Under the pieces are notes generated by a model. It was not told the DNA's origin. It saw only the letters and a program-made list of their open reading frames with translations, and searched no databases. Both the position numbers and the translations under genes were made by a program. A stretch of DNA of 64,000 bases from Zoogloea sp. (GTDB taxonomy: Bacteria; Pseudomonadota; Gammaproteobacteria; Burkholderiales; Rhodocyclaceae): the NCBI RefSeq assembly GCF_041915215.1, contig NZ_JAYSBV010000012.1. One strand, written 5' to 3'. Every line of letters begins with the position of its first letter. Position 1 is the stretch's first letter. Shown in pieces: positions 19,735 to 60,887 of the stretch.

Positions 19735-20122
19735 CTTAGCAATTCCCCTTCTTGGCCTGACCCGGCGGGCAAAAATCCCCACCACCACGATGGCCCCCGC
19801 TGCCACCTCGGTTCGGGTCCACAATCACGGCGCCACCCGGGGTGTATACCGCGCAGCCCCCCAACAGATTCAAAAAACTCGCCACAGCAGCCAGCATCAG
19901 CACTTTTTTCATTATTTATCCCTCATCGCATTGATTGTGTGGAATGGATCAGACAGCACCCATCCTGCCACGAGTCATTAAAAAGCACATCTCCAAACAC
20001 CGCCATCCAGGGCCAGAGGCAGCGGTCTCCCCACCAAAATACCCCCCTTTCCTCCCCCTGTTCTCCCCTAAGCCCAAGGGCGCCGATATCTAAGATTGCT
20101 GCAACCCTTCCAAGGAGCAGCA

Positions 20123-20893
20123 ATGAAGGCCGTGATCCTCGCGGGTGGCCTGGGCACCCGTCTTAGCGAAGAAACCGTCTCCCGCCCCAAGCCCATGGTG
20201 AACATCGGGGGGCGTCCCATCCTGTGGCACATCATGAAGATCTACTCCAGTCATGGCATCCATGACTTCGTGATCTGCTGCGGCTACATGGGCTACGTGA
20301 TCAAAGAGTATTTCGCCAACTACTTCCTGCACATGTCGGACGTCACCTTCGACATGAGCAACAACCAGATGGAAATCCACGAGCACCACGCCGAGCCGTG
20401 GCGCATCACCCTCGTGGATACCGGCGACCAGACCCAGACCGGCGGCCGCCTGGCCCGGGTGAAGCAGTACGTGAAGAACGAAGAGATGTTCTGCTTCACC
20501 TACGGCGACGGGCTGGCCGACATCGATGTGCGGGCCGAAATCGACTTCCACCGACGCCACGGCAAGCCCGCCACGGTGGCCGCCGTCCAACCCCCGGGGC
20601 GCTTCGGCTCGCTCCAGCTGGACGGGCCCGATGTGAGCGCGTTTGTCGAAAAGCCCCTGGGCGACGGCGGCTTCATCAACGGCGGCTTTTTCGTGCTCAA
20701 CCCCGGAGTGCTGGATCTGATCGACGGCGATCACAGCGTCTGGGAAGGCGACGTGCTCGCCCGCCTGATCGAACGCCACGAGCTGGCCGCCTTCCAGCAC
20801 AACGGCTTCTGGCGCCCCATGGACACCCTGCGGGACAAGTCCTACCTCGAAGAACTCTGGAACACCGGGAGCGCCCCATGGAAAACCTGGTGA
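20123..20893 (+). CDS. rfbF: glucose-1-phosphate cytidylyltransferase
   Basis: MKAVILAGGLGTRLSEET nucleotidyltransferase motif. About 256 aa. RBS AAGGAG. Confidence 0.9.
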   Translation: MKAVILAGGLGTRLSEETVSRPKPMVNIGGRPILWHIMKIYSSHGIHDFVICCGYMGYVIKEYFANYFLHMSDVTFDMSNNQMEIHEHHAEPWRITLVDTGDQTQTGGRLARVKQYVKNEEMFCFTYGDGLADIDVRAEIDFHRRHGKPATVAAVQPPGRFGSLQLDGPDVSAFVEKPLGDGGFINGGFFVLNPGVLDLIDGDHSVWEGDVLARLIERHELAAFQHNGFWRPMDTLRDKSYLEELWNTGSAPWKTW

Positions 20894-22014
20894 CGCCTCT
20901 TGTAGATCCGGGCTTCTGGGCCGGGCGGCGGGTATTTCTCACCGGCCACACCGGCTTCAAGGGCAGCTGGCTCGCCCTGTGGCTGCACCAGATGGGCGCA
21001 GAGGTGCAGGGCTATGCCCTCGCCCCGCCCAACAGCCCCAATCTGTTTGCCCTGGCGGGCATCAGCGAGCTGCTCCACAACCGGATCGGCGATCTGCGCG
21101 ACGGTGCTCACCTGCGGGCCTGCCTCACCAGCTTCGCCCCGGAAGTGGTGCTCCACCTGGGTGCCCAGGCGCTGGTGTCGGAAGGCTATGCCGACCCGGT
21201 GGGCACCTTCGCCACCAATGTCCAGGGCACCGTGAACCTGCTCGAAGCCGTGCGCTACTGCCCCAGCGTGGGTGCCGTGGTGGTGGTGAGCAGCGACAAG
21301 TGCTACGAAAACCGCGAATACACCGCCACCGACCGGGGCTATCACGAAGATGACCCCATGGGCGGCTACGACCCCTATTCGGCCAGCAAGGGCTGCACCG
21401 AACTGGTCGCCTCTGCCTACCGGCGCTCGTTTCTGCTGCAACGGGGCGTGCCCCTGGCCAGCGCCCGGGCCGGCAACGTGATCGGTGGCGGCGACTGGAG
21501 CCCTGCCCGGCTGGTGCCGGACGTGCTCGCTGCCTTCAGCGCCGGCCGCCCGGTGCTGCTGCGCAACCCGGACGGCGTGCGCCCCTGGCAGCACGTGCTC
21601 GAACCCCTGGCCGGCTACCTGGCCCTGGCCCAGCGCCTGCACCAGGAAGGCGCCCCCTGGGCCGAAGGCTGGAACTTTGGCCCCGACCCGGCGGATGCCC
21701 GGAGCGTGGGCTGGGTGGTGGAACACCTGGCCCGGGCCTGGGGCCCGGATGCCTGCTGGGACAAGGGCGATGCCCCCATCCATGAAGCTGGCACCCTGCG
21801 CCTGGATTGCCACAAGGCCCACACCCGCCTGGGCTGGCAGCCCCGCTGGGACACCGCCACCGCCCTCGACCGCAGCCTGGCCTGGTTCCGGGCCTGGCAA
21901 CAGGGCGCCGACATGCGCCAGTACAGCCGCGCCGAGATCGACGCCTACTGCGACGCTCCCGGCCTGGCCCCCACCGCCCCCACCCTCCACGGAGACACAT
22001 CATGCCCGGTCTGA
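20878..22014 (+). CDS. rfbG: CDP-glucose 4,6-dehydratase
   Basis: SDR extended family with [14 protein letters not shown] Rossmann motif. About 378 aa. Overlaps rfbF by 16 nt. Confidence 0.85.
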
Positions 22015-23369
22015 TCCGCTACGCCCTGCGCCCCGACGCGTCTGGCCAATGCCAACTGAACCTGCCCGAACTGGCCGGCCAGGATGTGGAAATCCTGGTG
22101 CGCCCGCGCCAGCCCGACAGCAGCGACACCCCCTGGCGCGCCGGGCGGGACAGCGTGCAGCCCTCGGGCAAGGTAATCGGCGAACCCGAAAAGAACGCCA
22201 TGATCGAAGCCGCCCTGGATGGCTGGCTCACCACCGGGCGCTTCAACGATGCGTTTGAGGAGCGCCTCGCCCGCTTTGTCGGGGTGCCCTACGCCCTCAC
22301 CGTGAATTCCGGCTCCTCGGCCAATCTGGTGGCCTTCACCACCCTGACCTCGCCCCAGCTGGGCGAACGGGCGATCCGCCCGGGGGATGAAGTCATCACC
22401 GTGGCCGCCGGCTTCCCGACCACCGTGTATCCCATCATCCAGAACGGGGCGATCCCGGTGTTCGTGGATGCCCGGCTGCCCGACTACAACATCGACGTGG
22501 CCATGCTGGAAGCGGCCCTCAGCCCCCGCACCAAGGCCATCATGGTGGCCCACACCCTGGGCAACCCCATTGATCTGGACACGATTTGCGCCTTTGCCCA
22601 GGCCCACAAGCTGTGGCTGATCGAAGACTGCTGCGATGCCCTCGGCTCCCGCTGGAAAGGCCGCCGGGTGGGGAGCTTCGGGGATCTGGCCACCCTGTCC
22701 TTCTACCCCGCCCACCACATCACCATGGGCGAAGGGGGCGCGGTGCTGACCGCCAACCCGGAGCTCAAGCGGATTGCCGAATCCTTCCGCGACTGGGGGC
22801 GGGACTGCTGGTGCAAGACCGGCTGCGACAACACCTGCGGCAAGCGCTTTGGCTGGCAGCAGGGCCGCCTGCCCGCCGGCTACGACCACAAATACACCTA
22901 CAGCCATGTGGGCTACAACCTCAAGATCACCGACATGCAGGCCGCCTGCGGGCTGGCCCAGCTGGATCGGCTGGAAGACTTCATCGCCGCCCGCAAGCGC
23001 AACTTCAACCACCTGAAGGCGGCCCTGGCCGATTGCACCGACTTTTTGATCCTGCCCGAAGCCACCCCGGGCAGCGATCCGGCGTGGTTCGGCTTCCCCA
23101 TCACCCTCAAGCCTGAAGCCGGGGTGAACCGGGTGGATCTGGTCCAGTACCTGGATCAGCACAAAATCGGCACCCGGCTGCTGTTTGCCGGCAACCTGAT
23201 CCGCCAGCCGGCCATGGCCGGGCGGGATTACCGGGTGATCGGCACCCTGCCGGTGGCCGACCAGATCATGCGCGACACCTTCTGGATCGGCGTGTGGCCC
23301 GGCCTCAGCCGGGAGCAGCTGGACTATGCCGTGCATCACATCAAGACCTTCCTGGGAGTCGAATTATGA
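22002..23369 (+). CDS. rfbH: CDP-6-deoxy-D-xylo-4-hexulose 3-dehydrase (E1, PMP-dependent, DegT/AHBA family)
   Basis: [10 protein letters not shown]...[12 protein letters not shown]-terminal signature of RfbH/DdhC. Start codon uncertain; the ATG at 22002 gives 455 aa and overlaps rfbG by 13 nt. Confidence 0.8.
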
Positions 23370-24862
23370 GCACCAAGCCCCTCATGGTGTTTGAAATGGC
23401 CAACAACCACATGGGCGACCTGGGCCACGGCCTGGCCACCATCCGCGCCCTGCGCGAGGCCTGCACCGGCTTCGAGGCCGATTTCGACTTCGCCTTCAAG
23501 CTCCAGTACCGGGATCTGGACACCTTCATCCACGCCTCGGTGCGCGGGCGCGAAGACGTGAAGTACGTGAAGCGCTTTGAAGAAACCCGGCTGAGCGACG
23601 CTTCCTTTCAGGAACTGGTGCGGGAAATGCGCGACAACGGCTTTCAAACCGTATGCACACCCTTCGACGAGCCCTCGGTGGACAAGATCGAAGCCCACGC
23701 CATCGAGAGCATCAAGGTCGCCAGCTGCTCCTTCACCGATTGGCCCCTGCTGGAGCGCATCGCCCAGAGCAACAAGCCGGTGATCGCCTCCACCGCCGGC
23801 GCGACGCTGGAAGAGATCGACAACGTGGTGAGCTTCTTCCTGCACCGCCACAAGCAGCTCACCCTGATGCACTGCGTGGCCGAATACCCGACCCCGGACG
23901 CCAGCCTGCAGGTGAATCAGATCGCCCTGCTCCAGGCCCGCTACCCGGACTGCCGGATCGGCTACTCCACCCACGAATCCCCCGACAACACCCTGGCGGT
24001 GGCCCTGGCCGTGGCCAAGGGCGCCCGGGTGTTCGAGAAGCATGTGGTGCTGCCCACCGCCCGCTACCCGGCCAATGCCTACTCGGCCAACCCGGCCCAG
24101 ATCCGGGCCTGGCTGGAAAGTGCGCGCCGGGCCCTGGCCATCTGCGGCAGCGCCGACCGCTACCAGCCCTCCCGCGCCGAAGAAGCCAGCCTGCACAGCC
24201 TGCGCCGGGGGGTGTTTGCCACCCGCCCCATTCCTGCCGGCACCCAGCTGACCCGGGACATGATCGAGTTTGCCTTCCCGCCGGTGGAAGGCCAGCTCAC
24301 CGCCAACGCGTGGTCCAAGTACAGCCAGTTCCGCGCCACCCAGGACATTCCTGCCGGCACCCCGGTGCTGCACATGGATCTGGCCGAAAGCCACCTGCGC
24401 AGCCAGGTGATGGGCATCGTTCAAGACGTGAAGAAGCTGCTCAAGGCCGCCCATGTGGTGATTCCGGGCAAGTCGGAACTGGAGATTTCCCACCACTTCG
24501 GGCTGGAGCGCTTTGACGACTTCGGGCTCACCATGCTCACCGTGGTGAACCGGGAATACTGCAAGAAGCTGCTGGTGCTGCTGCCGGGCCAGACCCACCC
24601 CGAGCAATACCACCTCAAGAAGGAAGAAACCTTTGTGGTGGTGCACGGCGAACTCACCCTGTGGCTCGATGGCGAAGAACGCCTGGCCCACGCCGGCGAC
24701 GTGATCACCGTGAACCGGGGCGTGCGCCACCGCTTTTACACCCGCGTGGGCGCGGTGTTCGAGGAGATTTCCTCCACCCACGAGCCCAACGACTCCTACT
24801 ACACCGACCCGGCCATTGCGCGGAACACCCAGCGCAAGACCTGGCTCACCTACTGGATGTAA
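23366..24862 (+). CDS. NeuB-family (sialic-acid-synthase-like) PEP-condensing enzyme with SAF domain, fused to a C-terminal cupin
   Basis: NeuB signatures [44 protein letters not shown] domain [17 protein letters not shown]. An extra roughly 140-aa cupin ([23 protein letters not shown]). ATGA overlap with rfbH. Confidence 0.65.
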
Positions 24863-24880
24863 GCCCGGAGACTGCCCACC

Positions 24881-26704
24881 ATGCGCCTTGCCGACTGGAT
24901 CATGCAGCGCCTCGCCGCCGAAGGGGTGCGCCACGTTTTCACCCTGCCCGGGGGCGGTGCCATGCATCTGAACGATGCCTTGGCCTGCGAAACCCAGCTT
25001 ACCCCAGTGCCCGGCCACCACGAACAGGCCTGCGCCATTGCTGCCGAGGCCTGCGGGCGCAGCGGCCCCCCGGGCTTTGGCGTGGTGCTGGTGACCACCG
25101 GGCCGGGGGCCACCAATGTGGTGACGCCCGTGGCCGGGGCGTGGATAGACTCGGTGCCCCTGCTGGTGATTTCTGGCCAGGTGAAGCGGGCCGATCTGCT
25201 CAATGGCCGTCCCCTGCGCCAGACCGGCGTGCAGGAGGTGGACATCATCAGCATGGTGCGCGGCATCACCAAATACGCGGTCACCGTCACCGACCCCCTC
25301 ACCATCCGCCAGCACCTGGAACAGGCCCTGTACCGGATGCGCCATGGCCGGCCCGGCCCGGTCTGGCTGGATATTCCGTTGGACGTGCAGGCTGCCCCCA
25401 TCGAACCCGAACAGCTCCCCGGCTGGAGCGCCCCCGAGCTGGACAGCCCCCTGCCCGGTCACACCCTGAGCGCCATTGCCGGGCTGCTCCAGAAATCCCG
25501 CCGCCCGCTGATTCTGGCGGGCCACGGGGTGCGTCTGGCCGGCGCGGCCAAGGACTTCCGGCAACTGGTGGACGCCCTCGGGATTCCCGCCGTCACCACC
25601 TGGAACGCCCTGGACCTGCTCCCCTGGGAACACCCCCTCAACCTGGGCCGCCCCGGCGTGGTGGCCGCCCGGGCCGCCAATTTTGCGGTGCAGAACTGCG
25701 ACCTGCTGATCGCCATTGGCAGCCGGCTGGACCCCATCATCACCGCCTACAACCCCAAGGGCTTTGCCCGGGAGGCACGCAAGGTGGTGGTGGATGTGGA
25801 CCCCCACGAACTGGCCCGCCTCGCCCAGCAAGACATGCCCATCGACCACGCCCTGGCCCTGGATGCGGGCGACTTCATCCGGGGGCTGGAAGTGGCCACT
25901 CGCAGCCTGAACCTGGATCAGCACGAAGCCTGGCGGGTGCGCTGCCGGGGCTGGAAGACCCGCTATCCGCTCAACGAAACCCCGCGCTTCCCCAGCGAAG
26001 GCCCCATCGGCCACGCCCATTTTGTGGCGGCCCTCTCGGAGGCGGCCCCGCCGGATACCCTCATCAGCACCGGCAGTTCGGGGCTGGCGGTGGAGTTTTT
26101 CTATGCGGGCTTCAAGAACAAGGAAGGGCAGCGCTGCTTCCTCACTTCCGGGCTCGGGGCCATGGGCTACGGCCTGCCCGCAGCGATTGGCGCCAGCCTG
26201 GGCCAGGACAAGCAAGCCTCCCTGGCGGTGGAGTCCGATGGGAGCCTGCAGCTCAACCTGCAGGAACTCGCCACCCTGGTGGCCCAACGCCTGCCGGTGT
26301 GCCTGTTCATCATGAACAACGGGGGCTATGCATCGATCCGCAACACCCAGCGCAACTACTTTGCCGGGCGCTATCTGGCGAGCGGCCCCCAATCCGGCCT
26401 GCACATGCCCGAACTGGGCCCCCTCGCCACCGCCTACGGGCTGCCCTACATGCAGATCAGCAACTGCCGAAATCTGGCCCAGCAACTGCGCGAAGCGCAA
26501 AACCTGCCCCGCCCCTGCCTGATCGACGTGCGCCTGATTCCCGATGAAACCCTCGCCCCCAAGTGCGCCGCGATTCCCCGGCCCGACGGTTCGATTGTTT
26601 CCATGCCGCTCGAAGACATGAGCCCCCTGCTGCCCCTGGAAACCCTCCAGCGGGAAATGCTGGTGCCGCTCCTGCCCGCATCGCTGGAAGCCCCCCGTTC
26701 CTGA
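24881..26704 (+). CDS. thiamine-diphosphate-dependent acetolactate-synthase-like enzyme (YerE-type sugar two-carbon branching enzyme candidate)
   Basis: ALS/TPP family architecture, 607 aa, with a GDG-like TPP region. Embedded in the CDP-sugar operon, as yerE is in the yersiniose cluster. Confidence 0.7.
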   Translation: MRLADWIMQRLAAEGVRHVFTLPGGGAMHLNDALACETQLTPVPGHHEQACAIAAEACGRSGPPGFGVVLVTTGPGATNVVTPVAGAWIDSVPLLVISGQVKRADLLNGRPLRQTGVQEVDIISMVRGITKYAVTVTDPLTIRQHLEQALYRMRHGRPGPVWLDIPLDVQAAPIEPEQLPGWSAPELDSPLPGHTLSAIAGLLQKSRRPLILAGHGVRLAGAAKDFRQLVDALGIPAVTTWNALDLLPWEHPLNLGRPGVVAARAANFAVQNCDLLIAIGSRLDPIITAYNPKGFAREARKVVVDVDPHELARLAQQDMPIDHALALDAGDFIRGLEVATRSLNLDQHEAWRVRCRGWKTRYPLNETPRFPSEGPIGHAHFVAALSEAAPPDTLISTGSSGLAVEFFYAGFKNKEGQRCFLTSGLGAMGYGLPAAIGASLGQDKQASLAVESDGSLQLNLQELATLVAQRLPVCLFIMNNGGYASIRNTQRNYFAGRYLASGPQSGLHMPELGPLATAYGLPYMQISNCRNLAQQLREAQNLPRPCLIDVRLIPDETLAPKCAAIPRPDGSIVSMPLEDMSPLLPLETLQREMLVPLLPASLEAPRS

Positions 26705-26727
26705 CTCCGACTGACTGAGGTCTGCCC

Positions 26728-27888
26728 ATGAGCCTCGCCTGCCGGCTGTGTGACCAGCCCCTGTTCCCCGACCCGCTGCTGTGCCAGCACCACATGCCCG
26801 CCGCCGCCCAGGAGCTGCCCACCGCCGCCACCCTGAGCGCCGATGGGGGGGTGAGTCTGGCCCTGCACCAGTGCAGCGCCTGCGGCGTGGTCCAGCTCAC
26901 CAACCCACCGGTGCCCTATTACCGGGACGTGATCCGCGCTGCCGGGCTCTCGGCGGAGATGCGCGCCTTCCGCCTCCAGCAGTTTGGCGCCTGGGTGGCC
27001 GGGCACGACCTCGCCGGCAAGCCGGTGCTGGAAGTGGGCTGCGGCCAGGGGGAATACCTGGCCCTGCTGCGCGAGGCCGGCGTGGATGCGTGGGGCCTGG
27101 AGCACCGGGCCGCCTCGGTGGCCCACTGCCAGACCCAGGGCCTGCAGGTCTTGCAGGGCTTCATGGAAGGCCCTGAAACCCGCTTCGCCGGGCCGGGCAT
27201 CCCGGGCCACTTCGACGGCTTTGCGATTCTCAATTTTCTGGAACACATCCCCGCCGCGCACCGAACCCTGGCCGGCATCGCCGCCCACCTGAGCCCGGGG
27301 GCCAGCGGGCTGGTGGAAGTGCCCAATTTCGACATGATCCTGAAGGCCGGGCTGTTTGCCGAGTTCATCCCGGATCATCTGCACTACTTCACCCAGGCCA
27401 CCCTCACCGGCCTGCTGGAGCGCAGCGGTTTCGAGGTGCTGGAGTGCCGGCCCGAATGGCACGATTACGTGCTCTCGGCCACGGTGCGCAAGCGCCAGCC
27501 CCTGGATCTGTCCAGCCTCAACCAGCGCCAGCACGCCCTGGCCGACGAATTCCGCCGCTTTCTGGCCGGCTTTGCGCCGGGCCGGGTGGCGATCTGGGGC
27601 GCTGGCCACCAGGCCCTGGCCCTCATCAGCCTGATGGACATCGCCCCCCACATCCGCTACGTGCTGGATTCGGCCCCCTTCAAGCAGGGGCGTTACACCC
27701 CGGCCACCCACCTGCCCATCGTGCCCCCCGAGCGGCTGGCCGAGGGCGAGGTGGATGCGGTCATCGTGCTCGCCGCCAGCTATTCGGACGAAGTGTTGCG
27801 CACCCTGCGGGCGCGCCACGGCAGCCGCTTTCGCACCGCTGCCCTGCGTGGCGAGCACCTGGTCTGCGATCCGGAGCCCCAGCCATGA
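26728..27888 (+). CDS. sugar C-methyltransferase (TylC3-like; Zn-ribbon + class I SAM MTase + C-methyltransferase C-terminal domain)
   Basis: N-terminal Cys-rich CRLCDQP...CQHH...CSACG. SAM motif VLEVGCGQGEY. C-terminal Rossmann-like VAIWGAGHQALALISL domain. Confidence 0.7.
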   Translation: MSLACRLCDQPLFPDPLLCQHHMPAAAQELPTAATLSADGGVSLALHQCSACGVVQLTNPPVPYYRDVIRAAGLSAEMRAFRLQQFGAWVAGHDLAGKPVLEVGCGQGEYLALLREAGVDAWGLEHRAASVAHCQTQGLQVLQGFMEGPETRFAGPGIPGHFDGFAILNFLEHIPAAHRTLAGIAAHLSPGASGLVEVPNFDMILKAGLFAEFIPDHLHYFTQATLTGLLERSGFEVLECRPEWHDYVLSATVRKRQPLDLSSLNQRQHALADEFRRFLAGFAPGRVAIWGAGHQALALISLMDIAPHIRYVLDSAPFKQGRYTPATHLPIVPPERLAEGEVDAVIVLAASYSDEVLRTLRARHGSRFRTAALRGEHLVCDPEPQP

Positions 27889-28442
27889 ATGCGCCACCTT
27901 CAAGCCCCGTCACCCCGGACGCCCTGGAGGCCGCCATTGCCACCCTGCAGGCCGCCGTGGGCTCGGCCCAGGCGGGGCTGCCCGAGCCGGTGTTCCAGCT
28001 GGTCAGCAGCCTGACCCCGCTCATCAATGTGGATCTGCTGATCCACGACGAACACGGTCGCTGCCTGCTCACCTGGCGCCACGATGCCTTCTACGGGCCA
28101 GGCTGGCACATTCCGGGGGGCATCATCCGCTTCAAGGAAGCCGCCGCCCAGCGCATTGCCGCCGTGGCCGACCTGGAGCTGGGCTGCTGCGTCACGTTCG
28201 CACCCCTGCCCATCGCCCTGCACGAAATCACCAACCCGAACCGGGACGTGCGCGGCCATTTCATCTCGCTGCTGTACTCCTGCCGCCTGGCCAGCCCCCC
28301 CGACCCGGGCCGGGCCTTTGATCCGGCCAGCCCCCGGGCAGGGGACTGGGCCTGGCACACGGGCAGCCCGGACAACCTGATCCACCAGCAGCACATCTAC
28401 CGCCCCTACATCGACAACCCCCTTGCCGGAGTCTGGTCATGA
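27885..28442 (+). CDS. NUDIX hydrolase, GDP-mannose mannosyl hydrolase (Gmm/NudD)-like NDP-sugar hydrolase
   Basis: Modified Nudix box GGIIRFKEAAAQRIAAVADLELG, alignable to Gmm GGRVQKDETLEAAFERLTMAELG. ATGA overlap with the methyltransferase. Confidence 0.55.
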   Translation: MNAPPSSPVTPDALEAAIATLQAAVGSAQAGLPEPVFQLVSSLTPLINVDLLIHDEHGRCLLTWRHDAFYGPGWHIPGGIIRFKEAAAQRIAAVADLELGCCVTFAPLPIALHEITNPNRDVRGHFISLLYSCRLASPPDPGRAFDPASPRAGDWAWHTGSPDNLIHQQHIYRPYIDNPLAGVWS

Positions 28443-29512: not shown

Positions 29513-29527
29513 GCCGCCCCCCGCGCC

Positions 29528-30568
29528 ATGTCCCCCGCCCTGCTTGCCGCCCCACTAAACCCGTTTGCCGACTGGGCCGCCCTGCGTGGCGCCCGGATCT
29601 TCATCACCGGCGGCACCGGCCTGTTCGGCCACTGGCTGCAGCCCCTGCTCTGCCGGGCCAACCAAACCCACGGACTGGGGCTGCAGCTCACGGTACTGAG
29701 CCGCGACCCGGCGCGCTTTCTGGCCGCCCATCCGGAACTGGCCGATGATACGGCGCTCAGCTTCATCGCCGGGGATGTGCGCGACTTTGCCTTCCCGGCA
29801 GGGGAATTCAGCCATGTGATCCACGGGGCGGCCACCGCCGCTGCCGCCACCTTCCACCGCCAGGAAGACGCCCTCACCAAGTTCGACACCACCTATGCCG
29901 GTACCCGCCGGGTGCTGGATTTCGTGGCCGAACGGGGTATCCCGCGCCTGCTGGTGCTGGGCTCGGGCGCTTACTACGGCCCCCTCCAGGCGGGCCACAC
30001 GGCCTACCCGGAGGACTACCCGGTCGCCCCCGAGCCCGGCAATCTGGACGTGGCCATTGGCCATGCCAAGCGGGCGGCGGAGTTCCTGTGCGCGGCCTAC
30101 GCGGCCCGCCACGGGTTTTCGTATTCGGTGGCGCGCTGCTTTTCCTTTGTCGGCCCCCATCTGCCCCTGGATCTGCACTACGCCATCGGCAACTTCATTC
30201 GCGATGCGCTGACGGCGCCCGCCATCATCGTGGGGGGCGACGGCAGCCCGATCCGCTCCTATCTGTATCTGGGCGACCTGATGGTCTGGCTGCTGACCGT
30301 GCTCACCCGGGGCGCCCCGGGGCAGGCCTACAACGTGGGCTCGGATGAAGCGATCAGCATCGGCGAACTGGCCCGGCGGGTGGGCGCGCTGTTGGCGCCC
30401 GGCAAGCCGGTACACATCCTGGGCCAGCCGAACGGGCTGCCTACCCGCAACATCTACGTGCCGGACATCCGCCGCGCCCGGGCGGAACTGGGGCTGGACG
30501 TACTCACCCCGCTGGATGATGCGATCCGCATCACCGCCCGCCATGCCGCGCCCCAAAGGCCGAATTAG
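29528..30568 (+). CDS. NAD-dependent epimerase/dehydratase (SDR) family protein, candidate NDP-4-keto-sugar reductase/epimerase
   Basis: ITGGTGLFGHWL glycine-rich NAD-binding motif. About 346 aa. Confidence 0.7.
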   Translation: MSPALLAAPLNPFADWAALRGARIFITGGTGLFGHWLQPLLCRANQTHGLGLQLTVLSRDPARFLAAHPELADDTALSFIAGDVRDFAFPAGEFSHVIHGAATAAAATFHRQEDALTKFDTTYAGTRRVLDFVAERGIPRLLVLGSGAYYGPLQAGHTAYPEDYPVAPEPGNLDVAIGHAKRAAEFLCAAYAARHGFSYSVARCFSFVGPHLPLDLHYAIGNFIRDALTAPAIIVGGDGSPIRSYLYLGDLMVWLLTVLTRGAPGQAYNVGSDEAISIGELARRVGALLAPGKPVHILGQPNGLPTRNIYVPDIRRARAELGLDVLTPLDDAIRITARHAAPQRPN

Positions 30569-30694
30569 CCCCGGCTGACCGGTCTTTTCCGGCCATGGCC
30601 CGCCCGGGCCTGGTTTCACAATGTGCTCAAAGCCGGATAAGCCAATTACCCGGCTGGCTGCTGTCATTCCCCGACAACCCAGCGAGAGCACACC

Positions 30695-31807
30695 ATGAGC
30701 ATTGCCCTAACCCCTGACGCCGGCCTCAACCCCGGCGAAGCCGCGAAACGCAACGACCTGGCGCAACGCAAGCCCTACATCGCCGCCAAGCTGGCGCGCA
30801 TCACCGAGATGGAGGAACGCGGCGAGATCAGCCCCATCATCCGGCTGGAAAAGAGCTATCTGTGCAACTTCACTTGCACCCATTGCTCTGCCGAGTACTA
30901 CATGGACCGGCACCTTAAAAAGGTTTTCCAGATCGTGGATGAGCGCCGCAAGATTGATCTGGACGACATTCGCCGGATCTCCCGCGAAGCCGACGAACTG
31001 GGCCTTGCCCGCTTCGTGATTACCGGGGGCGAGCCCCTGGTGATGAAGGACTTCGATGAGGTGGTGGCCGCCATCGACCCGGATCGCCATTACGTGATCA
31101 CCGACACCAATGGCTGGTTCCTGGATCTGGCCAAGGCCAAGCACCTGAAATCCATCGGCGTTGAAAAAGTCCAGCTCTCGCTGGACAGCATGGTGGAAGC
31201 CGATCACGACGCCTTCCGCAACAAGCCCGGCTCCTACAAGCGGGTGATGCGCGCCATCGACGCGGCCCGGGAGGCCGGCCTCAACCTGATTCTCTCCACC
31301 GTGCTGGTCAAGGGCCGGGCCAAAACCGACGAGTTCCGCCAGATGTGCGAATTCGCCAAGGCCAAGGGCATCGGGCTGTATGTGTCTTACGCCAAGCCCA
31401 CCGGCTCGTGCACCGAACACCCGGAGTTCGTGATCGAGAAGGAAGACGCCGACATCGTGCGGGAGCTGGAAAAGGAATATCCGGTATTCACCCACATGAC
31501 CCCTTCCTACGGCTCCTTCAAGGGCTGCATCACGGTGAAGGGCATCATCACCATCACCTCCACCGCCGAGGTGACGCCCTGCCCCTACATTGATTTTTCG
31601 CTCGGCAACCTGCGCGAGACGCCCCTCAAGGAAATTCTCGCCCGGGGCATGCGCAATCCCTGGCTCGGCCCCCACCGGCCCGACTGCCTGATCGGCGAAG
31701 ACCCCCAGTTCATCAAGATCCACACCGAACGCACCCAGGGCCGCACCCATCTGCCGGTGCCCTGGGGCCAGGGTTTTTCGGATCACGACAGCCTCCAGGA
31801 CGAGTGA
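30695..31807 (+). CDS. radical SAM enzyme (CX3CX2C; C-terminal Cys-containing auxiliary region)
   Basis: CNFTCTHC cluster motif. GGEPLV SAM-binding motif. C-terminal CPYID...C residues. Confidence 0.75.
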   Translation: MSIALTPDAGLNPGEAAKRNDLAQRKPYIAAKLARITEMEERGEISPIIRLEKSYLCNFTCTHCSAEYYMDRHLKKVFQIVDERRKIDLDDIRRISREADELGLARFVITGGEPLVMKDFDEVVAAIDPDRHYVITDTNGWFLDLAKAKHLKSIGVEKVQLSLDSMVEADHDAFRNKPGSYKRVMRAIDAAREAGLNLILSTVLVKGRAKTDEFRQMCEFAKAKGIGLYVSYAKPTGSCTEHPEFVIEKEDADIVRELEKEYPVFTHMTPSYGSFKGCITVKGIITITSTAEVTPCPYIDFSLGNLRETPLKEILARGMRNPWLGPHRPDCLIGEDPQFIKIHTERTQGRTHLPVPWGQGFSDHDSLQDE

Positions 31808-31876
31808 ACGCACGAGCACGCACGCTCACGCAGCCCCCCACATACACCCCACCTTCCGACCCGGGAGCCAGAGACC

Positions 31877-32683
31877 ATGTTTGCCACCGCCGACACCCTG
31901 CCCGACCTGTCCCTGTTTGATGAAAGTGGCCGCTGCCTGCCCAAGGGCCTGAACGCCCCGGCCCACGCCCGCAGCCGTCGCTACTTCCGCCTCCAGCCGC
32001 CGCGTCTGGACATGCCCAATCTGCACGCCCGGCTGCGCCAGCACCTGGGCGCCGGCCAAGGCATCAGCACCCAGGATTTCTGCACCCGGGTGGACGCCCT
32101 GCGCGCCAACCTGCAGGCAGACCCCCACCTGGCCGCCATTACCCGGGGCATCGGGATTCCCTTCATCCTGCCCCGGCTGGAGCACCCTGATGTGGGTACC
32201 GTACTGGACAAGCGCTACCTGCCGGCCATTGCCAGCGCCTTTGGCCAGCGCTTCCCGGATTACCGCTTCACCAGCCACCACACCCGCCCCCTGGCCGGGC
32301 TGTTGGGGGTACTGGAAGGCAGTCGCCACGAACGCCTGATCGAAGCCAGCCGGGAACGGGAGGTGGTGGGCCTGTACTTCCCTTGCCTCTCGGAATACTC
32401 GGTGCCCGCCGCCCTCGAACAGGTGGCCCGGCTGCCCGACAACTTTGTGCTGGCCGGCGGCTATGACACCAGTGCCGCCCTGGTGGCCTGCCCCGAGCTG
32501 CTGCTGCGCACCGACGGTTACCCGCCCCTGCTGTGGCTTTCGGCCCTGGCCGAAAACGGCAAACCCGGCATTGGCTACCACTACGAAGCCTACGGCTACA
32601 ACCTGACCTTCAACCGGCGCCCCCACCTGGGCATGGCCGCCGAGTACTGGAGCCACGGCCTGAGCGTGCTGGAAACCGTCTGA
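31877..32683 (+). CDS. hypothetical protein
   Basis: Co-directional ORF inside the island with no recognisable motif. Start uncertain. Confidence 0.35.
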   Translation: MFATADTLPDLSLFDESGRCLPKGLNAPAHARSRRYFRLQPPRLDMPNLHARLRQHLGAGQGISTQDFCTRVDALRANLQADPHLAAITRGIGIPFILPRLEHPDVGTVLDKRYLPAIASAFGQRFPDYRFTSHHTRPLAGLLGVLEGSRHERLIEASREREVVGLYFPCLSEYSVPAALEQVARLPDNFVLAGGYDTSAALVACPELLLRTDGYPPLLWLSALAENGKPGIGYHYEAYGYNLTFNRRPHLGMAAEYWSHGLSVLETV

Positions 32684-32725
32684 CCCCCTCTTCTGCACAA
32701 GACTGCAAGACCAAGGAAGGCCCCC

Positions 32726-35700
32726 ATGTCCAGCACGCTCCTGCGTCAGCTCTACGGCGCCCGCCGCCATCCCTATTACGTGATGGCCCCGGACTACCGG
32801 CGCACCTCCGCCGGCATCCGGGTCATGCACCAGCTCTGCCATGCCCTGCGCCTGAGCGGGGAGGAGGCCTGGATCGTGACCCAGCAGACCCACCCGGGCC
32901 TGGACACGCCCCTCCTGACCGATGAAATCCGCGCCGCCCACCAGAAAGCCGGCCTGGTGCCCATCGCCATTTACCCGGAAGTGGTGGGCCGCAACCCGCT
33001 CAACGGACGCGTGGTGGTGCGCTACCTGCTCAACCGCCCGGGCATGCTGGGCGAAACCCCGGCCTACGGCGCCGATGATCTGATTTACGTATACGAACCC
33101 GAGCTGGCCACCCACAGCGAGCGGGTGGATGGGGTGCTGCACATGCCCTCCATCGACACCCGGCTGTTCCATAACCGGGACAACCCGGACGAGGGCCGAC
33201 GCTCGGGATGCTGCATCTACTTTGGGCGCTACACCGGCGGCCCCCAGGAATACGCCGAACTGGCCGCCCGCTGCACCACGATCACCAGCGACTTTCCGGC
33301 CAGCCGGGAAGCACTGGCCGCCCTGCTGCGCCGCTCCGAATGGCTCTACTGCTTCGAAAACACCGCCCTGTCGATGGAAGCCCGCCTGTGCGGCTGCCCG
33401 GTGGTGATCCTGCCCGGCCCCATGTTCCGGGCCGAGAGCTTCTTTGGCCGGGAGCAGGGCTTTGAGCAAGGGGTGGCCTTCTCCGAAGAGCCCGCCGCCC
33501 TCGCCCAGGCCCGGGCCAGCGTGGGGCGCATCCCCGCCCTCTACGCCCGGCTGGAAGAAAAGTTCTGGAGCGGGCTGGACAGCCTGATCGAACAGACCCA
33601 GACCCGGGCCCAGGAAGAAGCCGCCCGCATCGGCGAAGAAGACCCGGCCCACCCCCGGAGCAGCAGCCAGGACCCGGAATACGCCACCTGGCGCGCCCGC
33701 CAGAGCCTGCAGGAAGTGGATGCCGAGGTGCTGGCCGAACGCATGGTGCAGCGCTGGACCCACCGCCCGGGCATCCACCTGATCCTCGAACTGCGCGCCG
33801 GCCAGGAGCCCCTGCTGGCCGACACCCTGGACAGCCTGGCCGCCCAGCTCTACCCCGAGTGGCTGCTGACCGTGGTGACGGTGCTGGACAAGCCCCCGGT
33901 GGCCGATGAGATTCCGAATCTCCAGTGGCTGAGCCTGCGCGACATCACCCACACCGATTACGTCATCGACGAAATGGCCAAGGCCTCCCCGGGCCAGTGG
34001 GTCGCCCGCATCGTGCCCGGCCTGACCCTGGAACCCCAGGCCCTGCAGGTGGCAGCGGATTACATCAATGCCCGCCCGGCCTGGCGCCTGATCTACACCG
34101 ACGAAGACACCCTGGAAGCAGACGGCAGCTACAGCCAACCCCTGTTCAAGCCCGATTTCAACCTGGACCTGCTGCGCGCCCAGGCCTATTTCGGCAGCCT
34201 GGTGCTGGTGGAAAAGCAGGCCCTGGTGGCCGCCGGCAGCTATGGCCCGGGCCAATACCCCTGGGCCGAAAACTATGACCTGAGCCTGCGGGTGCTGGAA
34301 CAGCAGGGCGAGGCGAGCATCGGCCACATCGACCAGATGCTCGTGCACCTGCATCGTCACAGCCCCCTCAGCCTCAACCCGGCCAGCGAAAAGGCCGCCC
34401 TGGAAGCCCATCTGGCCCGTTGCGGGCTGGAAGTGCGGGTACACGACAGCCCCCTGGCCGGCACCCGCCGGCTGGAACACCTGTGGCCCACCACGCCCCT
34501 GGTCAGCCTCATCATCCAGACCCGGGACCGGGAGGAATACCTGCGCCCCCTGCTGGACAGCCTGCGCGAACGCACCCGCTACCCGGCCTGGGAAGTGGTG
34601 CTGGTGGATAACGACAGCAGCGAGCACGACAGCCTCGCCTACCTGGCCGAGCTGCAGGCCGACCCGTTCTGGAGTGCCCGGCTGCGCGTCGTCCCCTGCC
34701 CGGGTGAGTTCAGCTACGCCCGGGGCGCCAACACCGGCGCCCGCCAGGCCCGGGGCGCCTATCTGATGTTCCTGGACAACGACATGCACATCGTTCAGGA
34801 CGAATGGCTGGACCGGCTGATGAGCCACGCCCAGCGCCCCGAGGTACTGATCGTGGGCCCGCGCCTGAGCTACCCGGAAACTGGCAAGGTACAGCAGACC
34901 GGCTGGGTGCTGGGCCTGCGGGGCAGTGCCGGCAGCCCCTGGGACAATGATCTCGAACTGGCCGCCCCCGGCTACATGGGGCGCGGGCTGTGCGATCAGA
35001 ACGTGGGCGCCATTGGCGGCTCGGCCCTGCTGATCCGCCAGACCGAATTTGCCCGGGTGGGCGGGATGGACGAGGTGAATTTCCCCCTCGCCCAAAGCGC
35101 GCTGGATCTGTGCCTGCGCGTTACCGGCGAAGGGGCCCCGGCGGGTGCCAAGATCGTCTGGACCCCCCACGCGATGCTGGTCCATTACGGCAGCGTTTCC
35201 CTCAAGGCCCGCCAGCGCAAGACCGAGGTGGCCCTGGCCGACCTGCTTGAAGCCCAGCGCGCCCACGATCAGGTGGTGGAGCGCTGGCTCCCCCGGCTGG
35301 CCCGGGACCCGGCCTATAACCGCCATCTGAGCTTGGTCAGCCCCTTCAAGCCCGAACATGTGATCCCCATGGACTGGGATCCGAACTTCCACGACCGGCC
35401 CCGCATTCTGGGCGTTCCGCTCACCGGCGGCGCTGGGGAATACCGGCTGCGCGCCCCCCTGCGCGCCCTGGCCCAACGGGGCCTGGCCCAGACCACCATC
35501 TGCGATCCACCCCGGGCCTTTACGGTGCGCATCCTGTCGCCAGTGGAAGTGGCCCGGGCCGCGCCGGACAGCCTGGTGCTGCACCAGCCCCTGGATGATG
35601 CCCAGAGCGACGCCCTCGCGGCCTACGCCCGCTTCGTCCCTGAGGTGAAGCGCATCGTGACCATGGATGACCTGATCACCGCCCTGCCCAAGAAGAACTG

Positions 35701-36394
35701 CTTTTATAAAAGCGGCTTCAAGGACGCCCGGGCCCGGCTGCGCCGCAACCTGGGCCTGGCAGACCGGCTGGTGGTGAGCACCCAGCCCCTGGCCGAGCTG
35801 TGCGCCGGGATGATCGACGATATCCGGGTGATGCCCAACGGGCTGGAAAGCGCACTCTGGCTCCCGGTTCAGCCGCCCCGCAAAGCCCGCCGCAAGCCCC
35901 GGGTGGGCTGGGCCGGCGCCCAACAGCACCAGGGCGACCTGGAACTGATTTACCCGGTGGTGGAAGCCCTGGCCGATGAGGTGGACTGGATTTTCATGGG
36001 CATGTGCCCGGACCCGCTCAAACCCTTCGTACGGGAAGCCCACGGCTTCGAGCTGAATTTCCGGGCCTATCCGGCAGCCCTCGCCCGGCTGGATCTGGAT
36101 CTGGCCATCGCGCCCCTGGAAATCCACGCCTTCAACGAAGCCAAGAGCAACCTGCGCCTGCTGGAATACGGGGCCATGGGCTGGCCCGTGGTGTGCACCG
36201 ACATCTACCCTTACCAGGACGCACCGGTGACCCGACTCCCCAACGATCCACAACGCTGGATCACCACCCTGCGCGAAATGCTGGCCGAACCCGAGGCCCT
36301 GGCCGCTGCGGGTCAGCAGCTACGCCAATGGGTTCTGGATCGTTACCTACTTGAAAACCTGCTGCCAGACTGGCTCTCCGCCTACGGCCCCTGA
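32726..36394 (+). CDS. large multidomain glycosyltransferase (unknown N-terminal region + two GT2 domains + C-terminal GT1/GT4-like domain)
   Basis: LVSLIIQTRD...VVLVDNDSS...FLDNDM (GT2 with DxD). An earlier GT2-like segment (LILELRAG...YTDEDT). C-terminal RVGWAGAQQHQGD...GWPVVCTDIYPY GT1-like segment. Ends 290 nt before fliC. Confidence 0.75.
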   Translation: MSSTLLRQLYGARRHPYYVMAPDYRRTSAGIRVMHQLCHALRLSGEEAWIVTQQTHPGLDTPLLTDEIRAAHQKAGLVPIAIYPEVVGRNPLNGRVVVRYLLNRPGMLGETPAYGADDLIYVYEPELATHSERVDGVLHMPSIDTRLFHNRDNPDEGRRSGCCIYFGRYTGGPQEYAELAARCTTITSDFPASREALAALLRRSEWLYCFENTALSMEARLCGCPVVILPGPMFRAESFFGREQGFEQGVAFSEEPAALAQARASVGRIPALYARLEEKFWSGLDSLIEQTQTRAQEEAARIGEEDPAHPRSSSQDPEYATWRARQSLQEVDAEVLAERMVQRWTHRPGIHLILELRAGQEPLLADTLDSLAAQLYPEWLLTVVTVLDKPPVADEIPNLQWLSLRDITHTDYVIDEMAKASPGQWVARIVPGLTLEPQALQVAADYINARPAWRLIYTDEDTLEADGSYSQPLFKPDFNLDLLRAQAYFGSLVLVEKQALVAAGSYGPGQYPWAENYDLSLRVLEQQGEASIGHIDQMLVHLHRHSPLSLNPASEKAALEAHLARCGLEVRVHDSPLAGTRRLEHLWPTTPLVSLIIQTRDREEYLRPLLDSLRERTRYPAWEVVLVDNDSSEHDSLAYLAELQADPFWSARLRVVPCPGEFSYARGANTGARQARGAYLMFLDNDMHIVQDEWLDRLMSHAQRPEVLIVGPRLSYPETGKVQQTGWVLGLRGSAGSPWDNDLELAAPGYMGRGLCDQNVGAIGGSALLIRQTEFARVGGMDEVNFPLAQSALDLCLRVTGEGAPAGAKIVWTPHAMLVHYGSVSLKARQRKTEVALADLLEAQRAHDQVVERWLPRLARDPAYNRHLSLVSPFKPEHVIPMDWDPNFHDRPRILGVPLTGGAGEYRLRAPLRALAQRGLAQTTICDPPRAFTVRILSPVEVARAAPDSLVLHQPLDDAQSDALAAYARFVPEVKRIVTMDDLITALPKKNCFYKSGFKDARARLRRNLGLADRLVVSTQPLAELCAGMIDDIRVMPNGLESALWLPVQPPRKARRKPRVGWAGAQQHQGDLELIYPVVEALADEVDWIFMGMCPDPLKPFVREAHGFELNFRAYPAALARLDLDLAIAPLEIHAFNEAKSNLRLLEYGAMGWPVVCTDIYPYQDAPVTRLPNDPQRWITTLREMLAEPEALAAAGQQLRQWVLDRYLLENLLPDWLSAYGP

Positions 36395-36417
36395 AAGGGC
36401 AGCCTACCCCAGCCACA

Positions 36418-36446
36418 AAAACCCGGCCTGTTGCGCCGGGTTTTTG
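36418..36446 (+). terminator. Rho-independent terminator (CCCGGC-loop-GCCGGG + TTTTT)
   Basis: Readable hairpin and T-run immediately after the large GT gene. Confidence 0.6.
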
Positions 36447-36565
36447 TGCTTTGCACCCTAAAGACTCGGCCCTCCCAGGCCGCTACCACTGGCAAGCCGG
36501 TAATCCGTCCAGAACTCCAACAAAACACAAAAACAAAAAAGTCAAGAGATTTATAGGGCGTTTTC

Positions 36566-36593
36566 TAAAGTCTTTTCCGGGCTTTCCGTAAAT
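36566..36593 (+). promoter_or_regulatory. candidate sigma-28 (FliA) promoter of fliC: TAAAG-N15-CCGTAAAT
   Basis: Match to the TAAA-N15-GCCGATAA class III flagellar promoter consensus, about 90 nt upstream of fliC. Confidence 0.4.
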
Positions 36594-36681
36594 GAATTCA
36601 ACGGCGGTTGCACAGCACACAACAAAGCTGACGCAAACCAAAGTCGAACACTGCTCATGTACGGAATGAAGGAGAAGCAAA

Positions 36682-37506
36682 ATGGCTGCCACGATCAACA
36701 CCAATTCCATGTCGCTCAACGCACAGCGGAATCTGTCTTCCTCGGCCGGTATCATGGCCAAGTCGGTCCAACGCCTGTCTTCGGGCCTGCGGATCAACGG
36801 CGCATCCGATGATGCAGCCGGCCTGGCGATTGCCGACAAGATGAACTCCCAGGCCAAGGGTTTTGACGTGGCCATCCGCAATGCCAACGACGGCATCTCC
36901 ATGGCCCAGACCGCAGAAAGCGCGATGCAGGCCGTGACCGACAACCTCCAGCGGATGCGCGAACTGGCGGTCCAGTCGGCCAACGGTACCTACACCAGCG
37001 GTGACCAGGCCAACATGGATACGGAATTCCAGCAGCTGCAATCGGAAATCCAGCGGGTTGTGGGGGGCACCACCTTCAACGGTCAGAACGTGCTGAACCT
37101 CAGCTCCAACGTGAATTTCCAGGTGGGTGCCGGTACTGCCACCACGGACACCATCACGGTGCAAAGCAGCGCAGTGACCCTGTCCGGGGTGTCCGCCGCC
37201 GTGACCGGCAGCATCAGCGCCGCCTCGGCTGCCACCGCCGCGATTGCCAACATCGACACCCAGATCAACAACCTGAACACTGCCCGCGCCACGTGGGGCG
37301 CCGTGCAGAACCGGTTCTCCTCGGTGGTCCAGACCCTGCAGGTGGCTTCGGAAAACGCCAAGTCCTCCCGTGGCCGGATCATGGATGCAGACTTCGCCCA
37401 GGAAACCTCCAACATGACCCGCGGCCAGATCCTGCAACAGGCCGGTACCGCGATGGTGGCCCAGGCCAACAGCGCCCCCAACAACGTGCTGTCCCTGCTC
37501 CGCTAA
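36682..37506 (+). CDS. fliC: flagellin (short, 274 aa)
   Basis: Conserved flagellin N-terminus ([16 protein letters not shown]...[20 protein letters not shown]) and C-terminus ([26 protein letters not shown]). RBS AAGGAG. Confidence 0.9.
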
Positions 37507-38036: not shown

Positions 38037-38075
38037 GGGGCCAAACACGCACCAGTTCCTCCTGGCAAGCAATTG

Positions 38076-38100
38076 ACCCACCCTTGCGGTGGGTTTTTTT
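38076..38100 (+). terminator. Rho-independent terminator (ACCCACC-loop-GGTGGGT + T7)
   Basis: Hairpin followed by seven T after flaG. Confidence 0.65.
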
Positions 38101-38270
38101 CGCCCCAACACATGCCAATTCACTAAACAACTCACCAAATGCGGGTAGCGCAAAGGCAGAAAAGCGGGGACAAGCCCCCTCTGCTATGGCTCAAGTTCTG
38201 GGCCCGGAAACCGTAATCTGGCTTATCCGTTTTAACGCTCCCCCATCAGCCAAATATCAGGGGATACCAA

Positions 38271-39644: not shown

Positions 39645-39669
39645 GCCCTGATCCCGACAGGAGAACACG

Positions 39670-60875: not shown

Positions 60876-60887
60876 ATAGCATGCGGG

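Follow-up and report, generated by a model that had tools for sequence, protein, structure and literature searches.

A putative flagellin glycosylation island of Zoogloea sp. with a widespread cassette for a branched sugar of predicted new chemistry

Flagellin glycans affect filament assembly, motility, and recognition by phages and the immune system. To our knowledge, few flagellin sugar chemistries are known: nonulosonic acids, rhamnose and viosamine, and a handful of others. In Pseudomonas, glycosylation islands combine a variable sugar module with large fliC-proximal transferases, for example VioT, which has 1173 amino acids (aa) (PMC3927599). A second set of described systems makes acyl-branched sugars. 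According to Steitz et al., erwiniose, caryophyllose, and gastriose are built from cytidine diphosphate (CDP)-4-keto-3,6-dideoxyglucose and a 4-hydroxy-2-oxo acid, which a pyruvate aldolase supplies (PMC9306805). In this long-branched scheme, a YerE-like thiamine diphosphate (ThDP) enzyme joins the halves and a YerF-like reductase finishes the product, and the R. palustris branched-sugar route has an added S-adenosylmethionine (SAM) methyltransferase (PMC9306805). Here, we describe a locus that shares features with both kinds of system. It lies directly 5' of the flagellin gene in a 64,000-nucleotide (nt) stretch of a Zoogloea sp. contig, NZ_JAYSBV010000012.1, which we call the window.

The locus is most likely a flagellin glycosylation island containing a widespread branched-sugar cassette of new chemistry. 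Our working interpretation is flagellin O-glycosylation, in which a glycosyltransfer unit is combined with a cassette for a CDP-activated 3,6-dideoxyhexose that would be acyl-branched at C-4 and C-methylated. Judging from sequence comparisons, we give this interpretation a probability of roughly 0.6. Flagellin is taken to be the target because the cassette is joined to a large transferase whose type is found next to flagellin genes across many bacteria.

A scan of open reading frames (ORFs) and of G+C content at third codon positions, with inspection of start codons, placed 12 genes between 20123 and 36394, all on the + strand (Table 1). They form a 16.5-kb operon, and the window has a G+C content of about 66%. 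The sequence-only reading had listed these genes, and all were found with strong domain support from Pfam and NCBIfam. It had also described a translationally coupled array. The genes are indeed co-directional, with overlaps of 16 nt (rfbF and rfbG, where GTG 20890 is an alternative rfbG start) and 13 nt (rfbG and rfbH) and three ATGA overlaps, but at the remaining six junctions 15-126 nt separate the genes. The rfbF start had been placed at TTG 20096. ATG 20123 is most likely the true start, given the AAGGAG ribosome-binding site in front of it and the full-length match to a hidden Markov model (HMM). Downstream, the predicted order of a terminator, a sigma-28-type promoter, and fliC-flaG-fliD-fliS-fliT was found in full, and fliK follows. 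The distance from the end of the island to fliC is 288 nt. Gene arrays identical to the island also occur on metagenome contigs, and an NCBI protein of a Rhodocyclales metagenome-assembled genome matches the large transferase at 100% identity.

The distribution of these genes was surveyed by scanning one genome per species with the radical-SAM protein and mapping the window proteins by tblastn. Each locus was viewed with a 10-kb flank, and many views were cut by the flank limit or by contig ends. An orthologue of the radical-SAM enzyme, the most conserved cassette protein, was carried by 74 species, one locus each, at 71-88% identity. The carriers belong to the Beta-, Gamma-, and Alphaproteobacteria, Nitrospirales, Anaeromyxobacter (Myxococcota), and Bacteriovoracia, and include one Pelagibacteraceae genome. 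Ten proteins make up the conserved cassette: RfbF, RfbG, RfbH, the NeuB-cupin, the ThDP enzyme, the 3-C-methyltransferase, the Nudix-like protein, the short-chain dehydrogenase/reductase (SDR), the radical-SAM enzyme, and its 268-aa partner. The partner gene lay directly 3' of the radical-SAM gene at 73 of the 74 loci. The other genes were in view at 58 (Nudix-like), 53 (C-methyltransferase), 51 (ThDP), 46 (SDR), 45 (NeuB-cupin), 35 (rfbH), 28 (rfbG), and 26 (rfbF) of the 74. This result reverses the earlier impression that these enzymes rarely co-occur. Only the 357-aa GT2, with an orthologue of at least 45% identity at 2/74 loci, is a local, lineage-specific addition outside the cassette. 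Azoarcus sp. KH32C and Chromobacterium violaceum share the array rfbF-rfbG-rfbH-NeuBcupin-ThDP-C-methyltransferase-Nudix-(SDR)-radical SAM-unknown-(SDR)-large transferase, and their radical-SAM proteins are 81-83% identical to that of the window.

Recurrent neighbors of the cassette were GT2, large-transferase-like, B12-radical-SAM, HAD, further radical-SAM, FkbM methyltransferase, PhyH, and SDR genes. The B12-binding radical-SAM protein, which is class B methylase-like and absent from the window, was a frequent optional extra (13397-15067 in L005, 13713-15458 in L082, and 15 further loci), which suggests lineage-specific additional methylation. In three Zoogloea loci (L012, L013, and L015, 1-10000), the order is radical SAM-partner-large transferase-fliC, and no rfb, NeuB, or ThDP genes are in the 10-kb view. 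The 10 kb upstream hold a GFO/IDH/MocA oxidoreductase, Methyltransf_24 proteins, a fatty-acid desaturase, and an FkbM methyltransferase. The sugar genes of these three loci may be displaced further away or absent. We dropped them as proof that the radical-SAM pair occurs without sugar genes, since the inserted genes fill the view.

Assignment was firmest at the start of the predicted pathway. In the HMM searches that the sequence-only reading had suggested, RfbF, RfbG, and RfbH (DdhA, DdhB, and DdhC), the set that would make the acceptor, all scored above the curated cutoffs of TIGR02623, TIGR02622, and NF011936 (Table 1). RfbH also has a Cys-rich segment. The entry into CDP-3,6-dideoxyhexose chemistry had been called complete; these three enzymes are present, but the E3 reductase is not, as discussed below.

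The NeuB-cupin was not assigned to a known equivalog. It scored 147 bits against the NeuB model (cutoff 399.65) and 137.7 bits against the PseI model (cutoff 340.25). In the PDB, it matched 3g8r (4.5e-144). Its cupin part matched the D-lyxose isomerases 2y0o and 7nzo and resembles D-lyxose/D-mannose ketol isomerases, which act on free sugars. The NeuB-SAF-cupin family is large, and the fusion is kept among the 120 best homologues at 63-79% identity. The NeuB-cupin and ThDP genes were adjacent and co-oriented wherever both were seen, even where the pair was inverted relative to the rest of the cassette. There is no pyruvate aldolase in the island, and the NeuB-cupin occupies the place beside the ThDP gene.

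The ThDP enzyme had been proposed to install a YerE-type branch at C-4, and the structural matches agree. Its best PDB match, over the full length, was the carboligase JanthE (8rph, 2e-111), ahead of acetolactate synthases (1e-72), and it scored below the cutoffs of all acetolactate synthase equivalog models. Its ThDP motif reads SDG...NN, with SDG instead of GDG or CDG. By sequence, the enzyme thus appears to belong to the YerE-like subclass and not to the acetolactate synthases.

Which donor this enzyme uses decides the length of the branch. NeuB-type synthases yield 3-deoxy-4-hydroxy-2-oxo acids. The NeuB-cupin is more likely to be the maker of an alpha-keto-acid donor than to act apart from the ThDP enzyme, and the branch is more likely to be longer than the two carbons of yersiniose, because the two genes are adjacent wherever both are in view and no synthetase for a cytidine monophosphate (CMP)-activated sugar was detected in the island or among the recurrent neighbors. 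The recurrence of the NeuB-ThDP pair, at only 37-39% identity, in a flagellin island of Pseudomonas kurunegalensis is a further reason. Another is the HAD phosphatase that recurs as a neighbor at 13 loci, as in routes of the KDN-9-phosphate type, which use such a phosphatase. The sequence-only reading had expected a two-carbon branch and an optional phosphoenolpyruvate (PEP) condensation. The YerE-like enzyme is retained from that proposal, but a longer polyhydroxyalkyl branch now seems the better expectation, and the condensation is probably not optional.

If the ThDP enzyme instead used pyruvate, the product would carry a yersiniose-type two-carbon branch and a C-methyl group, the NeuB-cupin would either serve a separate nonulosonic-type sugar or have no role, and the products would still go to flagellin. 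YerE uses pyruvate, JanthE takes it among other donors, and NeuB-family enzymes normally make sialic-acid-like flagellin sugars, with partial matches of the NeuB-cupin to NeuB and PseI. We nevertheless regard this alternative as rather unlikely. No CMP-ulosonic acid synthetase and no enzymes for precursors derived from uridine diphosphate N-acetylglucosamine (UDP-GlcNAc) were found among the 12 island proteins or the recurrent neighbors, and neither the island nor the cassette showed precursor genes of the PseB/C/H/G or LegB/C type. The shortfall of the NeuB-cupin against both equivalog cutoffs, the pairing of the two genes wherever both are in view and its recurrence in a divergent Pseudomonas island, and the behavior of ErwE-type relatives, which reject pyruvate and need 4-hydroxy-2-oxo acids, also speak against it.

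The P. kurunegalensis locus (L081, 4766-19492) contains rfbF-rfbG-rfbH, a 1163-aa transferase, a NeuB protein without a cupin, and a ThDP enzyme with a GDG motif. These are followed by genes for an FkbM methyltransferase, an SDR, a methyltransferase, and KAS III, and then by fliC; the radical-SAM pair is absent. It looks like a second flagellin chemistry based on NeuB and ThDP enzymes.

The remaining tailoring enzymes were compared in the same way. The predicted TylC3-type C-methyltransferase held up, with matches to KijD1, TcaB9, and 4rv9 (1e-14 to 1e-23) and a value of 1.5e-23 for 5t64. KijD1 and TcaB9 are labelled sugar 3-C-methyltransferases in the PDB. Like a TcaB9/TylC3 enzyme, the protein combines a class I SAM domain with the C-terminal domain of sugar C-methyltransferases, and its N-terminal part has the Cys4 motif (CxxC at residues 5-8 and again at 49-52). 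The SDR matched extended SDRs of the UDP-glucuronate decarboxylase and deoxythymidine diphosphate (dTDP)-glucose dehydratase types, and we propose that it acts as a YerF-like reductase of the side-chain ketone or as an epimerase.

The Nudix-like protein did not fit its earlier description as Gmm-like. It scored 26 bits against the GDP-mannose mannosyl hydrolase model (cutoff 146), and the motif conserved in all orthologues, GGIiRfKE..a.Ri..VA..Elg, lacks the RE..EE residues, so that neither the score nor an intact Nudix box expected of Gmm/NudD was found. Nonulosonic acid pathways free the hexose from its nucleotide before a NeuB-type condensation. By analogy with PseG and PseI, the Nudix-like protein could free the tailored CDP-dideoxyhexose and the NeuB-cupin could extend the free sugar with PEP, so that both halves would derive from CDP-glucose. 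The conservation of the Nudix-like gene and its weak resemblance to a mannosyl hydrolase would fit such a route. The loss of the catalytic residues, a Gmm match far below its cutoff, and a cupin like the free-sugar ketol isomerases, which suggests a ketose from primary metabolism, make it very improbable.

Two cassette proteins had few informative matches. The radical-SAM enzyme has a CX3CX2C motif at C57/C61/C64. It matched no NCBIfam model at the cutoff, and its nearest PDB match was MoaA (5.6e-15). The 268-aa partner had no Pfam or NCBIfam match, its listed homologues had no precomputed Pfam domain, and its family comprises 469 clusters among 1.84 billion representatives. The two very likely work together, because a natural fusion exists: P0361 (632 aa) is 82% identical to the radical-SAM enzyme in its N-terminal part and 53% identical to the partner in its C-terminal part. 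P0392 resembles a fragment of a similar fusion, with a SPASM segment and a partner domain. The pair was considered as a replacement for the missing E3, but nothing supported this idea and it was dropped.

The link to flagellin comes from gene neighborhoods. A flagellin gene was within the 10-kb view at 15 of the 74 loci, and adjacency to fliC recurred in Rhodocyclales, Chromobacterium, Methylophaga, Ideonella, Sulfuricella, and Dechloromonas. Downstream of the cassette, Chromobacterium sp. CV08 has two large transferases and a B12-radical-SAM gene, and then fliC-fliC-flaG-fliD just past the 10-kb limit; five more Chromobacterium species match this arrangement as far as the view extends. At most fliC-bearing loci, a homologue of the 1222-aa transferase lay immediately 5' of fliC. 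Full-length homologues of 36-37% identity occur in Pseudomonas, one of them inside the fliC-adjacent island of P. kurunegalensis. Homologues are also directly 5' of fliC in Chromobacterium, in a 2.9-Mb genome, and in a gammaproteobacterial metagenome-assembled genome. The C-terminal ~900 residues have homologues directly 5' of fliC beside other sugar genes (FdtA/DegT/acyltransferase; DegT/formyltransferase/TylF). With fliC adjacency in several genera and this transferase family at fliC beside unrelated cassettes, the earlier suggestion that flagellin is the target is strengthened. We propose that the 1222-aa protein is the flagellin glycosyltransferase and that FliC, whose central segment is rich in Ser, Thr, and Ala, is the glycan acceptor.

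Three modules had been assigned to the large transferase. Two GT-A modules (~345-590, and a GT2 at 594-719 and beyond) and a weak GT-B-like/GT1-like C-terminus were recovered, and an N-terminal GT-B-like module (1-300) must be added. This module was in view at 32/74 loci, and neither of the two homologues examined next to different sugar cassettes has it; its behavior is that of a shuffled module linked to the cassette. It was seen in three forms: at the N-terminus of the large transferase, alone in a protein of ~300 aa, and within giant proteins. In Methylophilaceae, it is the C-terminal end of 1300-2250-aa proteins directly 5' of the radical-SAM gene. Loci with the module include L036 (6018-9944), L039 (3174-9929), L076 (350-7099), L029 (19264-20166), L056 (3921-4892), and L066 (3927-4886).

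Another possible explanation is that the locus serves an O-antigen, a capsule, another surface polysaccharide, or general protein glycosylation, that its proximity to fliC is coincidental, and that flagellin does not receive the sugar. The YerE-type branched sugars of known structure are all components of lipopolysaccharide (LPS) or lipooligosaccharide, and a Pelagibacteraceae genome and many loci with no flagellin in view carry the cassette. Set against this are the recurrence of fliC adjacency in several groups and the fliC-adjacent transferase family with other sugar cassettes. Also, when the O-antigen possibility raised by the sequence-only reading was checked, neither the scanned window proteins nor the recurrent neighbors included a Wzx, Wzy, Wzz, ABC transporter, WaaL, or undecaprenyl-phosphate priming transferase. 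We judge this explanation improbable.

If flagellin is the acceptor, the following pathway can be drawn. RfbF, RfbG, and RfbH would convert glucose-1-phosphate to CDP-4-keto-3,6-dideoxy-D-glucose, an assignment at the equivalog level, with the E3 electron donor coming from elsewhere. The NeuB-SAF-cupin would condense PEP with a free aldose, possibly supplied by its lyxose-isomerase-like cupin domain, to give a 4-hydroxy alpha-keto acid of the 3-deoxy-2-ulosonic type. The JanthE/YerE-like enzyme would then decarboxylate the ulosonic acid and add the acyl carbanion to the C-4 ketone, leaving a tertiary alcohol that bears a long polyhydroxy side chain, as in the erwiniose/caryophyllose/gastriose scheme with NeuB replacing the pyruvate aldolase. 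The SDR would reduce the side-chain ketone as YerF does, the TcaB9-type enzyme would C-methylate a carbon next to a ketone, and the radical-SAM enzyme and its partner may carry out further radical tailoring. Finally, the 1222-aa transferase, with the extra GT2, would move this sugar, and probably further sugars, to Ser/Thr residues in the central segment of FliC.

Several points weigh against this interpretation. The cassette lacks an E3 in every locus examined; neither the island, nor the window proteins that were scanned, nor the recurrent neighbors include a DdhD/AscD reductase, and the acceptor keto-sugar is therefore an assumption. We infer every chemical step after RfbH from sequence. 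JanthE accepts pyruvate in vitro, making a two-carbon branch possible, and the cupin could act on a nucleotide sugar instead of a free aldose. The large transferase can be likened to the proven transferases Fgt1, VioT, and OrfN by context and size only. Pelagibacteraceae are not known to be motile, so the Pelagibacteraceae locus (L065) and the many loci without flagellin in view indicate that the sugar is not intrinsically flagellar. In view of that genome, a flagellum-specific use of the cassette does not extend to every lineage. The cassette is a widespread, horizontally mobile unit, and its sugar may be attached to different acceptors in different lineages.

A more specific version can be offered as tentative. 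A C8-C9 ulosonic acid made by the NeuB-cupin may be grafted decarboxylatively by the JanthE-type enzyme onto C-4 of CDP-4-keto-3,6-dideoxyglucose, and the product may be C-methylated and remodelled by the radical-SAM pair, for example by carbocyclisation. The resulting sugar would represent a new class of higher-carbon sugars and may commonly decorate the flagellins of Rhodocyclales, Chromobacterium, Methylophaga, and their relatives. If this is true, JanthE-type enzymes gain a physiological role and NeuB-family synthases a new function as suppliers of ThDP donors.

The regulatory signals were inspected as well. The motif TAAAGT-N14-CCGT(A/T)AA lies 116-125 nt 5' of the fliC start in the window and in seven related loci (Zoogloea, Dechloromonas, and other Rhodocyclaceae). 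It fits a FliA-type promoter, because it is conserved 5' of fliC in all eight loci and occurs once in the window. The intrinsic terminator lies 234 nt before the fliC ATG. Upstream of rfbF, no sigma-28 promoter was found, only a -10-like GCCGATAT without a correctly spaced TAAA -35. This element, at 20082-20089 (+) and 34 nt 5' of the rfbF start, matches the sigma-28 -10 element at 7/8 positions. A scan for sigma-70 promoters gave no match in the region.

Table 1. Features of the island and the adjoining flagellar genes (window coordinates).
Feature	Coordinates	Strand	Evidence
rfbF/ddhA, glucose-1-phosphate cytidylyltransferase, 256 aa	20123..20893	+	TIGR02623 equivalog, 462 bits (cutoff 300), full length
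rfbG/ddhB, CDP-glucose 4,6-dehydratase, 378 aa	20878..22014	+	TIGR02622, 449 bits (cutoff 278)
rfbH/ddhC (E1), CDP-4-keto-6-deoxyglucose 3-dehydratase, 455 aa	22002..23369	+	NF011936 RfbH, 720 bits (cutoff 423)
NeuB-SAF-cupin fusion, 498 aa	23366..24862	+	Pfam NeuB 1e-43, SAF, Cupin_2 1e-12
Predicted YerE/JanthE-like ThDP carboligase, 607 aa	24881..26704	+	TPP_enzyme_N/M/C domains
Predicted sugar C-methyltransferase, TcaB9/KijD1/TylC3 type, 386 aa	26728..27888	+	Methyltransf_23 4e-17, Methyltransf_14 3.8e-15
Nudix-fold protein, degenerate Nudix box, 185 aa	27885..28442	+	PF00293 1.6e-5
GT2 glycosyltransferase, 357 aa	28439..29512	+	PF00535 3.8e-19
Extended SDR, 346 aa	29528..30568	+	Epimerase family 1e-28
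Radical-SAM/SPASM enzyme, 370 aa	30695..31807	+	PF04055 and SPASM
268-aa protein, obligate partner of the radical-SAM enzyme	31877..32683	+	
1222-aa four-module glycosyltransferase	32726..36394	+	
Intrinsic terminator closing the island operon	36419..36448	+	CCCGGCC-loop-GGCCGGG stem, then TTTTTGTG
FliA (sigma-28)-type promoter-like motif	36566..36592	+	TAAAGT-N14-CCGTAAA
fliC, short flagellin, 274 aa	36682..37506	+	Flagellin_N 4.9e-43, Flagellin_C 1e-24
flaG, fliD, fliS, fliT, fliK (filament cap, chaperones, hook-length control)	37584..41722	+	Pfam FlaG, FliD_N/C, FliS, FliT, Flg_hook

Other features of the window were noted around the island. About 7 kb 5' of it, with an AraC regulator and eut genes between, a 255-aa ORF without a family match is followed by a gene for a FlgO-domain protein (12784-13374, +, 2e-37); this pair (12029-13374) may be outer-membrane flagellar accessory genes. 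A short ORF at 19763-19921 (-), between a Gcw_chp gene and rfbF, encodes a lipoprotein-like N-terminus, MKKVLMLAAVASFLNLLGGC. Right after fliK, a 109-aa protein (41719-42048, +) matches only the C-terminal part of FlhB/YscU (PF01312, 1.2e-17). Farther downstream is a Calvin-cycle-like cluster (47346-56180, +) with phosphoribulokinase, transketolase, GAPDH, and phosphoglycerate kinase. An inositol-monophosphatase-family protein, PPK2, and argA lie 5' of the cluster, and a MORN-repeat protein (48396-50165) is on the opposite strand. The region 59000-64000, with a G+C content of 0.58-0.60 compared to ~0.66 elsewhere, may be foreign DNA; it has two ORFs without a family match, an SPFH/Band 7 protein, and an RtcB RNA ligase.

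We know of no case in which CDP-3,6-dideoxyhexose formation, NeuB-type PEP condensation, and YerE-type ThDP branching have been shown to work together. The locus points to a new, widespread flagellin sugar made by joining these three enzyme logics with a highly conserved radical-SAM pair. Our literature searches found no description of such a flagellin glycan, in line with the sequence-only reading, which could name no matching pathway; earlier work on JanthE or on the >200 YerE-like gene clusters might mention the NeuB or flagellar context. JanthE-like carboligases have been engineered as biocatalysts, and their natural substrates are not known (PMC12188165). The island offers a concrete physiological context for these enzymes and a route towards predicting acyl-branched sugars from sequence.

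The closest characterized relative of the ThDP enzyme is JanthE of Janthinobacterium sp. HH01, a YerE-like carboligase that accepts ketones and has a broad range of alpha-keto-acid donors. Both enzymes have an atypical first residue in the ThDP motif. The cassette orthologues are 41-72% identical to each other and ~40% identical to JanthE, placing them in a separate orthologous group. Compared to the acyl-branched pathways for yersiniose (DdhA-D, YerE, YerF), erwiniose (ErwE/F/I/J), caryophyllose (MMAR_2331-2333), gastriose, and "ropiose", the island has in common ddhA/B/C, a YerE-like ThDP enzyme, and an SDR, and shares a SAM methyltransferase with R. palustris. The predicted donor is likewise a 3-deoxy-4-hydroxy-2-oxo acid. 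The differences are that a PEP-dependent NeuB-cupin replaces the pyruvate aldolase (ErwI, MMAR_2331, MygI), that ddhD is missing, that radical-SAM, partner, and Nudix-like proteins are added, and that the context is flagellar instead of LPS.

With the glycosylation of flagellin by nonulosonic acids (pseudaminic and legionaminic), the island shares a NeuB-family PEP-condensing synthase in a flagellin-linked locus. Unlike those systems, it has no detected CMP-synthetase, UDP-GlcNAc-derived precursor genes, or Maf-type transferase. With the Pseudomonas islands (orfA-orfN of P. aeruginosa PAK; fgt1/fgt2 and the viosamine island of P. syringae), it shares sugar genes and multi-domain transferases of ~1150-1250 aa directly 5' of fliC. 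The sugars there are rhamnose and acylated viosamine from dTDP-sugars, whereas here we find CDP-3,6-dideoxy chemistry, a NeuB-cupin, a ThDP carboligase, and a radical-SAM pair. Since the Pseudomonas type is distinguished by a conserved transferase close to fliC that is combined with an exchangeable sugar module, we assign the island to it. It is a known kind of system with a sugar cassette whose predicted chemistry is new.

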